A stretch of DNA of 64,000 nt from Shigella phage SHSML-52-1, in the sequence record KX130865; one strand, given 5' to 3'. Under the pieces are notes generated by a model, which made no database searches, was not told the origin of the DNA, and was given only the letters and a program-made list of their open reading frames with translations. Shown one piece after another: positions 36,737 through 40,333 of the stretch; positions within the stretch are counted from its first letter, which is position 1, and each line of letters starts with the position of its first letter. The position numbers and the translations under genes are program-made.

Positions 36737-37099
36737 ATGAAAGCATATCAAATTCTTGAAGGCACACACAAAGGCACTATTTATTTTGAAGACGGTACTC
36801 AAGCCCGGATTATTGTCTCTAAGACTTTTAAAGAAGACGCTATTGTAGACCCGGAAATTTTCTACGGTTTACATGCCCGCGAAATTGAAATTGAACATCA
36901 ACCTAAAGTTAAAATTGAAGGTGGTCAACACCTGAACGTTAATGTTCTGCGTCGTGAAACTCTGGAAGATGCAGTTAAGCATCCAGAAAAATATCCGCAG
37001 TTGACCATCCGTGTATCCGGTTATGCAGTTCGCTTTAACTCTCTGACTCCGGAACAGCAGCGTGACGTTATCGCTCGTACCTTTACTGAGAGTCTATAA
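36737..37099 (+). CDS. autonomous glycyl radical cofactor (GrcA/YfiD-like)
   Basis: 120 aa; C-terminal half [60 protein letters not shown] matches the E. coli GrcA glycyl-radical domain as I recall it. Confidence 0.85.
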
Positions 37100-37323
37100 T
37101 GGCTAAATTGATTATAGAAGGGTCTGAAGATGTTTTAAAATGTTTTGCCGCCTGGTTTAGTTGCTCAGGCGAGCAATCATTCATTGAAGCATTTAGAATG
37201 GGTGATATTACTGGAAACTATCCGGCAACTGATATCACTGTACGTGGATATGGTATTAATGAGCCTATCCAATTGGTCGAATATGACCTTGCCACCGATG
37301 AGGAAATTCCTTATGTCGATTGA
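37099..37323 (+). CDS. hypothetical protein
   Basis: 74 aa; TAATG overlap with upstream gene. Confidence 0.5.
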   Translation: MAKLIIEGSEDVLKCFAAWFSCSGEQSFIEAFRMGDITGNYPATDITVRGYGINEPIQLVEYDLATDEEIPYVD

Positions 37324-37579
37324 AGATATTAAAGGCTACAAGCCACATACCGACGATAAAATCGGTAAAGTGAACGCTATTAAAGATGCAGAAGTCCGTC
37401 TTGGATTGTTGTTTGATGCTCTGATTGAAGAAGCATATATCTTGAAAGAAAATGAAACAGAGCAACAAACCAAAGAAGATATGGATGCAGTACAGGCTCT
37501 TAAGTATGCTAAGCAACATCTAAAAGAAGCCAGCATGTGGGCCTGTCGTGCAGTATTTCGACCTGAGGAAAAATACTAA
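37313..37579 (+). CDS. hypothetical protein
   Basis: 88 aa from ATG 37313; chosen over the 144-aa overlapping track ORF from 37145. Confidence 0.45.
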
Positions 37580-38401: not shown

Positions 38402-38944
38402 ATGAGAAAAGCACTACTCGCTGGTCTATTTGCTCTTTCGTTATCAGCACATAGCTCCGAGCATACTTTTAGTAATGTCCAACTCGATAACTTGAATTAT
38501 GCTTATCAGTTTGGGGAACAGTTTTCTAAGGATGGAAAATTTAAAACGCATGAAAATATGCATAAGAAAGGACTTGGATACATAATGGCCGCAATACTAT
38601 GGCAGGAATCATCTGCCGGTATTAATCTTAAAGATAAGAAAGGTCACCATGCGTATGGAATGTTCCAAAACTATCTACCAACAATGAGGGCAAGAATTAA
38701 CCAGCTTGGTTATAATATGACTGATGCCCAAATTAAGAAAATGCTATCTAAGCGGTCTAATTCAGCAAGATGGGCTTATATCGAATTTTCTTATTGGTTA
38801 AATATACATAACGGGGATATAAGAAAAGCTATATCCTCATATAATGCGGGATGGAAGACAAGTGCTGGAAGTAAATATGCTTCTGAAGTCCTAGAAAAGG
38901 CTAATTACCTTAAATCAAATAAACTACTGGAAATAAAAGAATGA
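38402..38944 (+). CDS. secreted lytic transglycosylase-like protein (SLT/lysozyme-like fold)
   Basis: 180 aa; signal peptide MRKALLAGLFALSLSAHS; catalytic-like ILWQESSAG and MFQNY, YNAGW motifs. Confidence 0.6.
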   Translation: MRKALLAGLFALSLSAHSSEHTFSNVQLDNLNYAYQFGEQFSKDGKFKTHENMHKKGLGYIMAAILWQESSAGINLKDKKGHHAYGMFQNYLPTMRARINQLGYNMTDAQIKKMLSKRSNSARWAYIEFSYWLNIHNGDIRKAISSYNAGWKTSAGSKYASEVLEKANYLKSNKLLEIKE

Positions 38945-39288
38945 CCAAAATGTTGGCTTTAATAGTTGGCTTGGTTTCATTTAACGCTCTTGCTAATACT
39001 ACATATACTGATGTAACGGAGTATACAAACAGAACGGCGTCTGATTATTGTGGTAAAAGTCAAGAGTGTAAAGTAGATTTTTCACAAAAATTGTTATATG
39101 CGTATAAAGACGGAGAAAAAGATGGGGCGTCTAGTAGGTTCAAGGCGTCTACCTTAATTAAAAGATACTATAAAAAATGGCAAATATTAGAATGCTCGGT
39201 GGCGGAACCTAAAGATAAGGCAGCATGCAATTCTATGGTGGACCGTCTAGTTGACTCTTATACTAGAGGACTTGCAGCAAGTGATTAA
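38941..39288 (+). CDS. secreted cysteine-containing small protein
   Basis: 115 aa; signal peptide MTKMLALIVGLVSFNALA; 5 Cys. Confidence 0.5.
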   Translation: MTKMLALIVGLVSFNALANTTYTDVTEYTNRTASDYCGKSQECKVDFSQKLLYAYKDGEKDGASSRFKASTLIKRYYKKWQILECSVAEPKDKAACNSMVDRLVDSYTRGLAASD

Positions 39289-39748
39289 AAACTATATCAA
39301 GGGCGATATTGTCGCCCTGTTTTCTAAAGGTAATAATATTGCTCATGGGTGCAATTGTTTTCATACAATGGGCGCTGGTGTAGCAGGTCAATTAGCAAAG
39401 GCTTATCCAAAAATTTTAGAAGCCGATAAACTTCAAACCGAATTCGGAGACGAGTCTAAACTCGGTTCCTATTCGGTTTATGAAAAATATTTTAAGACCC
39501 ATAAAGCTTATTGCTTTAATCTTTATACACAGTTTGAGCCGGGACCTAATTTTGAGTACTATGCTTTAATGAATTGTATAATAGAATTAAATGAATTCGG
39601 AAAAAATAAGATAACAAAGCCTGTAATTTATATGCCAAGAATTGGTGCAGGTATAGGTGGTGGAAACTGGGATATCATTGAAGAAATTCTTGATACATAT
39701 TCCACTAAACTAGAAATTGTGATTGTTGATTGGGAACCATTATTATGA
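39281..39748 (+). CDS. macro-domain-like protein (possible ADP-ribose binding/hydrolase); start codon uncertain
   Basis: No in-frame ATG near the 5' end; GTG 39281 is preceded by AGAGGA; motifs GNNIAHGCNCFHTMGAGVAG and PRIGAGIGGGNW resemble macro-domain ligand-binding loops. Confidence 0.45.
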   Translation: MIKNYIKGDIVALFSKGNNIAHGCNCFHTMGAGVAGQLAKAYPKILEADKLQTEFGDESKLGSYSVYEKYFKTHKAYCFNLYTQFEPGPNFEYYALMNCIIELNEFGKNKITKPVIYMPRIGAGIGGGNWDIIEEILDTYSTKLEIVIVDWEPLL

Positions 39749-39957
39749 ATGTGCATTACCCACATCCGTTTGATCCTAAAAATAAAGCAGTAATTATTCG
39801 TCAATGGGAACGCATTTGTCGTACTAAATGTCCAATTAATAGTCCACATGATGTCGATAAAGACTACATTGGAACATTCGTTGAATATACCTTTATTGAT
39901 AAGAAAGGTCGTAAACAGCATGTAGAAGAATACTGCTTAAAGGTGACATGGTTATGA
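39745..39957 (+). CDS. hypothetical protein
   Basis: 70 aa from ATG 39745 (ATGA overlap). Confidence 0.45.
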   Translation: MNVHYPHPFDPKNKAVIIRQWERICRTKCPINSPHDVDKDYIGTFVEYTFIDKKGRKQHVEEYCLKVTWL

Positions 39958-40139
39958 GTTTAAGTAAAGAACAAAAAGACAAACTCTTTTCTCTTATCCA
40001 CGAAGTTATGGATAAAAATAGCGAATTGGAAAAAGTTTGTAATGAATGCGGTCCTTTTAATACTGACGAATACGAAGAACTGTGTAAAGATTTTGACGAT
40101 AAAGAGCAAGAACTTATTGATTATATAAATTCATTATGA
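39948..40139 (+). CDS. hypothetical small acidic protein (paralog of next gene)
   Basis: 63 aa; LSKEQKDKLFSLIHEV aligns with ITREQKNEILFLVGEI of the next ORF. Confidence 0.45.
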   Translation: MVMSLSKEQKDKLFSLIHEVMDKNSELEKVCNECGPFNTDEYEELCKDFDDKEQELIDYINSL

Positions 40140-40333
40140 TTACTCGCGAACAAAAGAACGAAATATTATTTTTAGTTGGTGAAATTATTAGTTTAGAAAA
40201 GGATTTGTCTTTTGAAATATCTTCTGAATATGGAGATGCCGAAACATATTACGAATTAGTAAAATCTATCAATAAAGCTGAAAATGATTTAGAAACATAT
40301 TTAGAAAATTTAACTAAGGACTCTTATGGCTAG
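40136..40333 (+). CDS. hypothetical small acidic protein (paralog of previous gene)
   Basis: 65 aa; overlaps both neighbours by a few nt. Confidence 0.45.
   Translation: MITREQKNEILFLVGEIISLEKDLSFEISSEYGDAETYYELVKSINKAENDLETYLENLTKDSYG

Follow-up and report, generated by a model that had tools for sequence, protein, structure and literature searches.

The closest described counterpart of the gene considered here is tk.4 of phage T4, which was the sole significant hit when a T4 transposon library was screened on a DarTG2-expressing host (bioRxiv 10.1101/2025.11.20.689424, November 2025). A clean tk.4 knockout rendered T4 DarTG2-sensitive, the predicted structure of the T4 product resembles the macrodomain of M. 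tuberculosis DarG, and the gene was renamed adfM; in the wording of that preprint, it 'seems likely' that the protein removes ADP-ribose from DNA enzymatically (bioRxiv 10.1101/2025.11.20.689424). Such removal, from thymidine in DNA, has been experimentally shown for DarG, TARG1 and SCO6735 (PMC12879935; PMC9411070). A second phage protein named AdfM, gp104 of PhiKZ, removes DarT2-made ADP-ribose in vitro and is impaired by the N23A substitution (Cell Rep 2026, PMC13309987). Two different macrodomain clades have thereby received the name AdfM independently, that of PhiKZ gp104 (DarG-type, with the catalytic Lys) and that of T4 Tk.4 (Gln-type).

Among the cellular macrodomains, SCO6735 of Streptomyces coelicolor (PDB 5e3b) is a stand-alone, ALC1-like protein encoded by a DNA-damage-induced bacterial gene. 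It is a TARG1-like dT-ADPr hydrolase and protects against DarT toxicity. Its Gln85 is described as 'equivalent to Lys84 in TARG1 and Lys80 in DarG', its replacement (Q85A, Q85E) inactivates the enzyme, N27S leaves hardly any activity, His24 is found at the site, and a water-mediated mechanism has been proposed (PMC9411070). Human TARG1/OARD1 (PDB 4j5r, 4j5s), which carries a K84/D125 catalytic dyad, also cleaves dT-ADPr (PMC12879935). Yeast Poa1p (PDB 6lfq-6lfu) is an ADP-ribose-1''-phosphate phosphatase acting on a small metabolite, and is the source of the 'phosphatase' annotation of the phage family.

The DNA that we analysed, hereafter the window, is a stretch of 64,000 nucleotides from Shigella phage SHSML-52-1 (sequence record KX130865). 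The gene at 39281-39748 is the Mosigvirus (RB69-group) orthologue of T4 tk.4, renamed adfM for anti-DarT factor, macrodomain. It is a real and already known gene, long annotated in T4-like phages and with an anti-defence role published in 2025 for the T4 orthologue. The 1.5-kb stretch around it is 99.5% identical to Escherichia phage Mizar, which is RB69-like, and shows 96–99% identity to many RB69-like (Mosigvirus) phages; the product is 96.1% identical to RB69 Tk.4 and 85.2% identical to T4 Tk.4 (NP_049723, over 155 aa). T4 and window proteins are both 155 aa long, are encoded between vs and tk.3, and share the invariant H22, N25 and Q84. They are separated by 23 substitutions and by the start codon, which is ATG in T4 and GTG here, and the anti-DarTG2 phenotype was measured for the T4 allele only.

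Gene order in the window is vs.1 (encoding an SLT-like protein), vs, tk.4, the tk.3 homologue, two DUF7438 paralogues and tk, which is the order found in T4 (vs.1-vs-tk.4-tk.3-tk.2-tk.1-tk); the region is also syntenic with RB69 and Mizar. The genes around tk.4 lie on the same strand, tightly packed and overlapping (Table 1). The tk.4 GTG overlaps the end of vs by 8 nt, with the vs stop codon (TAA) at 39286-39288, and the ATG of the tk.3 homologue overlaps the tk.4 stop (ATGA). A preliminary description of this DNA, made from the letters and open reading frames, had placed a 155-aa macro-domain-like protein between a secreted protein and tk, without identifying the gene as tk.4. The ORF, its length and both of the motifs quoted for it are present, whereas the neighbourhood needed correcting: the upstream product does have a signal-peptide-like N-terminus, but its gene is vs, the valyl-tRNA synthetase modifier, and tk is not an immediate neighbour, with three small ORFs (the DUF7202 tk.3 homologue and the two DUF7438 paralogues) intervening.

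Table 1. Features of the tk.4 region, in positions of the window
Feature	Position	Strand	Basis
vs (valyl-tRNA synthetase modifier), upstream gene	38941..39288	+	phrog_1256 E 5e-35; Mizar annotation
Shine-Dalgarno-like GAGGA, 10 nt before the GTG	39266..39270	+	read from sequence
tk.4/adfM orthologue, stand-alone macrodomain of 155 aa, GTG start, TGA stop	39281..39748	+	ORF, translation, Pfam Macro, same CDS in Mizar annotation
GTG start codon, position-homologous to the T4 tk.4 ATG	39281..39283	+	DNA alignment, 9 orthologues
8-bp GC-rich hairpin in codons 7-13 of tk.4, then GUUUUCU; tail to 39328	39300..39318	+	terminator-like scan match; conservation; folds
H22-G23-C24-N25 of the HGCNC motif	39344..39355	+	alignment; literature mutants (PMC9411070, PMC13309987)
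Glycine-rich loop 1, HTMGAGVAG (residues 28-36)	39362..39388	+	aligns with the M-G-x-G loop of TARG1 and DarG
Q84, which aligns with the catalytic Lys residues K84 of TARG1 and K80 of DarG	39530..39532	+	profile alignment; hhalign
Glycine-rich loop 2 (diphosphate-binding loop), PRIGAGIGGGNW (residues 119-130)	39635..39670	+	alignments
tk.3 homologue (DUF7202), downstream gene	39745..39957	+	Pfam DUF7202 E 7e-39; T4 gene order
Two tandem DUF7438 paralogues (tk.2/tk.1-like, 63 and 65 aa), between tk.3 and tk	39948-40139, 40136-40333	+	Pfam

Several further features of the neighbourhood were recorded. The N-terminus of the vs product is of the classic signal-peptide-like form (MTKMLALIVGLVSFNALA followed by NT), which is unexpected if its target is, as described, a cytoplasmic synthetase; in T4, vs is the most depleted gene in minimal medium (HIDEN-SEQ preprint, bioRxiv 10.1101/2025.11.20.689424). 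RB69 has a single DUF7438 copy here and is without tk.3, and the C-terminal residues of its Tk.4 are altered (..WEPK in RB69 versus ..WEPLL). Approximately 1.7 kb upstream of tk.4, at about 37313-37579 (+), lies a homologue of T4 vs.4, the anti-CBASS protein Acb2, so that two anti-defence genes share one run of genes on the same strand. The ORF at 36737-37099 (+) encodes a GrcA-like autonomous glycyl-radical cofactor with the RVSGY motif. Scanning for local sigma-70 promoters gave 16 sites, against 18.0 ± 3.9 in shuffled sequence, hence no excess.

The start codon had been proposed as GTG, overlapping the upstream stop and with no ATG at the start, and this was upheld by comparison with orthologues. 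All 53 aligned homologues, down to 36% identity, begin no more than two residues from the GTG-encoded residue, most of them with 'MI..', and the annotations of RB69 and Mizar use the identical GTG. Among nine aligned orthologues, GTG-ATT is found at the start in the window and RB69 only, whereas T4, EP01 (Tequatrovirus), UP19 (Dhakavirus), Phi1 (Krischvirus) and the Proteus, Erwinia and Klebsiella phages have ATG-ATT at the homologous codons. As T4 and six other orthologues have ATG where the window and RB69 have GTG, the GTG looks, from this alignment, like a change specific to the RB69-like lineage. The GAGGA is kept among the closer T-even orthologues in the DNA alignment, and is positioned 11 nt upstream of the ATG in T4. 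Two other candidate starts were rejected. The TTG at 39251, which was the first candidate of the ORF finder, adds 10 residues found in none of the 53 homologues, and the ATG at 39368 (codon 30), the first in-frame ATG and the sole one in the first third of the ORF, removes beta-strand 1, which is the active-site strand, together with the HGCNC motif.

The beginning of tk.4 also contains a hairpin, AGGGCGAU-AUU-GUCGCCCU, which together with its tail falls within the first 16 codons and includes the GC-rich codons GGC, GTC and GCC. It is identical in T4, RB69 and EP01, and UP19 differs in the loop only. In the distant Phi1 the stem is kept, a GTC-to-ATC change turning a U.G pair into U-A. The hairpin is missing in the Proteus, Erwinia and Klebsiella phage orthologues, where the protein sequence differs. 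Base pairing between the U-rich tail and the Shine-Dalgarno region is possible in the window (MFE -19.3 kcal/mol, z -2.27) but is not seen in T4. This strong hairpin might attenuate transcription, mark the 3' end of the vs transcript or control translation.

The macro-domain-like character given to the protein in the preliminary description was borne out by profile search, structure prediction and fold search. Pfam Macro (PF01661) gives the product 27.3 bits, above its gathering cut-off of 22, in a match that spans positions 2-117 of the 118 in the profile, and phrog_335 matches the 155-aa sequence with an E-value of 3.5e-66. From the PDB, a profile of the family retrieved the macrodomains BT1257 (7e-17), TARG1 (1e-15), Poa1p (5e-14) and SCO6735 (9e-14), and also the DarG structures (2e-12 and 3e-10). 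The AlphaFold2 model, for which the input was an alignment of 54 sequences (the window protein and 53 homologues), reached a pLDDT of 94.3 and a pTM of 0.89, and the fold is the three-layer alpha/beta/alpha one of macrodomains. Foldseek returned 125 PDB matches with E ≤ 0.001, and all of the 50 listed were macrodomains or scaffolds derived from macrodomains, with TARG1, Poa1p, BT1257, DarG and SCO6735 as top matches (E 3e-10 to 1e-6, TM 0.69–0.80). The two glycine-rich ligand loops are present as MGAG (30-33) and GAGIGGG (122-128), in which G33, G122 and G124 are invariant; the motifs quoted for them were GDIVALFSKGNNIAHGCNCFHTMGAGVAG (residues 8-36) and PRIGAGIGGGNW. Because of the Pfam, phrog_335 and PDB profile matches and the AlphaFold2 model, the resemblance of these motifs is far beyond chance, and the product of 39281-39748 is a macrodomain of the ALC1/TARG1-like class.

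Residues H22, G23, N25, C26, G33, A35, D49, G62, N80, Y82, T83, Q84, P119, I121, G122 and G124 are invariant in the 54-sequence set, in which identity falls as low as 36%. In the profile-to-TARG1 alignment, Q84 stands opposite the catalytic K84 and G126 opposite D125, and a profile-profile comparison with a DarG-type alignment (hhalign) likewise places Q84 opposite the catalytic Lys of FPTK; N25 is paired with N23 of PhiKZ gp104 by BLASTP. As Q84 and G126 replace Lys and Asp, the Tk.4-type family is without the residues of DarG/TARG1 catalysis. The Lys84/Asp125 dyad of a TARG1-type hydrolase is thus absent in the profile alignment.

The H22/N25/Q84/G124 pattern fits His24/Asn27/Gln85/Gly128 of SCO6735, an equivalence obtained by transitivity through TARG1 and DarG; a 48-aa peptide query of the PDB, meant to align the two proteins directly, gave noise only (MYST1, E about 1). 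From this pattern we infer SCO6735-like chemistry for the Tk.4-type protein, in which Gln84 would play the role of SCO6735 Gln85. Both are stand-alone ALC1-like macrodomains and, on this equivalence, both would have Gln at the key position, a His/Asn pair and the loop glycines. They differ in that identity is about 23%, the mobile loop following the Gln is longer and Lys-rich in SCO6735, Lys34 of SCO6735 has A32 in its place in the phage protein, and one is a bacterial gene and the other a phage gene. The SCO6735-like Gln active site is the only modestly new point of this analysis, the rest being already known.

The DarG macrodomain (PDB 5m3e, 5m3i) and PhiKZ gp104 have the fold, the presumed substrate (dT-ADPr made by DarT2) and the first-motif Asn in common with the window protein, whereas DarG and PhiKZ AdfM carry the catalytic Lys of FPTK where the Tk.4 family has YTQ. 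The PADLOC DarG model scores PhiKZ gp104 at 133 bits and the window protein at 31 bits, in a match limited to model positions 4-145 of 329, which is the macrodomain part. The NCBIfam DarG equivalog (NF048014) gives 29.5 bits against a cut-off of 250, and the BLAST match between PhiKZ gp104 and the window protein covers 23 residues only, around the first glycine loop. By the PADLOC and NCBIfam scores, both confined to the macrodomain part, the relation to the DarG models is weak but specific, which speaks for the anti-DarT2 reading given below. Membership of the DarG antitoxin family was rejected, with a score below the cut-off, no C-terminal DarT-binding domain and no catalytic Lys. TARG1 is of similar size and is the best Foldseek match (E 3e-10, TM 0.70–0.77), although its K84/D125 dyad corresponds to Q84/G126. 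Poa1p shares H-x-C-N-C and gives the highest TM-score (0.79–0.80), although it has Ser at the Q84 position and Phe152 at that of Gly126.

The preliminary description had allowed that a phage macrodomain might counter a host defence acting through ADP-ribosylation, and the T4 tk.4 screen and knockout on DarTG2 hosts lend support to this from the literature (bioRxiv 10.1101/2025.11.20.689424). We consider it probable that the Tk.4 orthologue here is an anti-DarT2 macrodomain that removes ADP-ribose from thymidine by means of an SCO6735-type site; that the window allele shares the T4 role and acts catalytically on dT-ADPr is what we infer from its relatives. In such a mechanism, tk.4 would be expressed early, as assumed from T4, and translated from the GTG overlapping the end of vs. 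DarT2 would attach ADP-ribose to thymidine at TNTC motifs in single-stranded phage DNA, and the Tk.4 product would bind that ADP-ribose and hydrolyse the ribose-base bond. The invariant Gln84, held by Asn25, would position the distal ribose while a water-mediated reaction does the chemistry, and the site would hence not be of the Lys-dependent type of DarG, TARG1 and PhiKZ AdfM. Replicable DNA would be restored, allowing phage growth on DarTG2 hosts. Several points count against this reading. The window allele carries 23 substitutions relative to T4, with G127 in loop 2 where T4 has Lys; neither the Lys essential to DarG and TARG1 nor the TARG1 Asp is present; databases label the family 'phosphatase' (Poa1p-like); and inactive SCO6735, DarG and TARG1 mutants still inhibit DarT (PMC9411070), so that the mode of action may be partly non-catalytic.

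The absence of the catalytic Lys of DarG/TARG1 also favours a non-catalytic neutralisation of DarT2, in which the protein would act by binding to the toxin, or by capping either free ADP-ribose or the ADP-ribosylated DNA, and be an inhibitor or reader, not an eraser. Inactive SCO6735 Q85A, DarG K80A and TARG1 K84A still inhibit DarT in vitro, by interaction (PMC9411070), and neither biochemistry of the T4-type protein nor enzymology of T4 Tk.4 was found in the literature searched. We regard this reading as unlikely, however, as the 155-aa protein lacks the C-terminal DarT-binding domain of DarG, and even very divergent homologues, from phages and bacteria alike, all keep the Asn, Gln and loop Gly on which SCO6735 catalysis depends, as expected of an enzyme. 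The database label would be explained if the protein were a Poa1p-like metabolite phosphatase or deacetylase, hydrolysing ADP-ribose-1''-phosphate or O-acetyl-ADP-ribose and so clearing NAD-derived by-products during infection, with the DarTG2 phenotype being secondary or T4-specific. Poa1p is indeed among the best sequence and fold matches, the H-x-C-N-C motif is common to it (H23-S-C-N-C), its H23 and S30 (mutated in PDB 6lfs and 6lft) correspond to H22 and T29, and the RefSeq name of T4 Tk.4 is 'phosphatase; contains A1pp phosphatase motif'. This label is homology-derived for the phage protein, however, while F152 of Poa1p corresponds to G126 and the sole experimental phenotype, that of T4 tk.4, is DarTG2-specific and is left unexplained by the label. 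To our knowledge there is also no known source of ADP-ribose-1''-phosphate in T4-like phages, and taken together we find a metabolite phosphatase quite improbable.

T4-like phages encode ADP-ribosyltransferases, and the preliminary description had pointed to Alt, ModA and ModB as a source of marks that the macrodomain could reverse or sense. A protein that erases or reads Alt, ModA and ModB ADP-ribosylation, or that reverses other host defence marks such as RNA ADP-ribosylation by CmdT-like toxins, seems to us very improbable. Alt, ModA and ModB modify arginine, and the arginine linkage is removed by ARH-type hydrolases; we know of no macrodomains that cleave arginine-linked ADP-ribose. Erasure of the phage's own marks is unlikely because these are arginine-linked, and this part of the earlier proposal found no support. 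For CmdT-like toxins, the homologue in Vibrio aestuarianus adjoins a toxin-antitoxin-chaperone operon, although this association was seen at one of 80 bacterial loci. SCO6735 is inactive on 2'-OH RNA ADP-ribosylation, and the SCO6735 paper is inconsistent on phosphate-linked RNA ADP-ribosylation. The T4 DarTG2 screen phenotype is moreover clean and specific, which argues against either version.

Relatives of the protein are numerous. A tblastn search found 2,789 phage records, from T4-like and many other phage groups, variously labelled 'phosphatase', 'macro domain protein', 'Poa1p-like' or 'hypothetical', and matches to the family motifs were confirmed at 347 places in a collection of species-representative bacterial genomes. 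At eight inspected chromosomal loci the macro gene stands alone beside unrelated genes (by ORF inspection, with Pfam on nine selected neighbours). The homologues from a Nitrospirae MAG (P0105) and a Bacilli MAG (P0116) are on phage-like contigs, the latter contig encoding a T4-type Rnl1, Pnkp, a Dda-like helicase, a spanin and dCMP deaminase.

The neighbours of two bacterial homologues were noted. In Vibrio aestuarianus LMG 7909 (L042, 1762-4885), the Tk.4-type macro gene is flanked on one side by a phage-type integrase and on the other by a convergent operon of three genes. The first gene of the operon encodes 189 aa with a PARP-like pattern recognised by eye (HGT ... GTGIYF), and the last encodes a SecB-like chaperone matching PADLOC PD-T4-9_C. 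This may be a CmdTAC-like ADP-ribosylating toxin-antitoxin-chaperone system. With one of 80 bacterial loci showing it, a link of the Tk.4 family to CmdTAC-like systems was rejected and treated as defence-island coincidence. In Stieleria magnilauensis (L081, 4010-6343), the bacterial homologue adjoins a 777-aa fusion of HIT, PLD-like and ResIII/helicase domains that matches PADLOC models of type IV methyl-directed restriction enzymes, which suggests a defence-island setting.

A broader reading, which we put forward tentatively and consider rather doubtful, is that Tk.4-type macrodomains are a lineage of DNA ADP-ribosylglycohydrolases in their own right, Lys-independent and of the SCO6735-like Gln type, not captured from DarG and shared with free-standing bacterial genes, whose substrates may extend beyond dT-ADPr (e.g. 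protein Glu/Asp-ADPr or other nucleic-acid linkages). If true, T4 Tk.4 and PhiKZ gp104 would represent a case of convergence, each with a chemistry of its own.

The finding adds little to published knowledge, and its practical value is correct annotation: databases give 'phosphatase' or 'hypothetical protein' where the best-supported name is anti-DarT2 macrodomain (AdfM/Tk.4). With an invariant Gln in place of the catalytic Lys, the Tk.4 family allows no equivalent of the DarG K80 mutants, and the rational catalytic-dead alleles would be Q84A and N25A. From the same invariant Gln, a water-mediated reaction like that of SCO6735 is predicted for this phage protein, which is very widespread.
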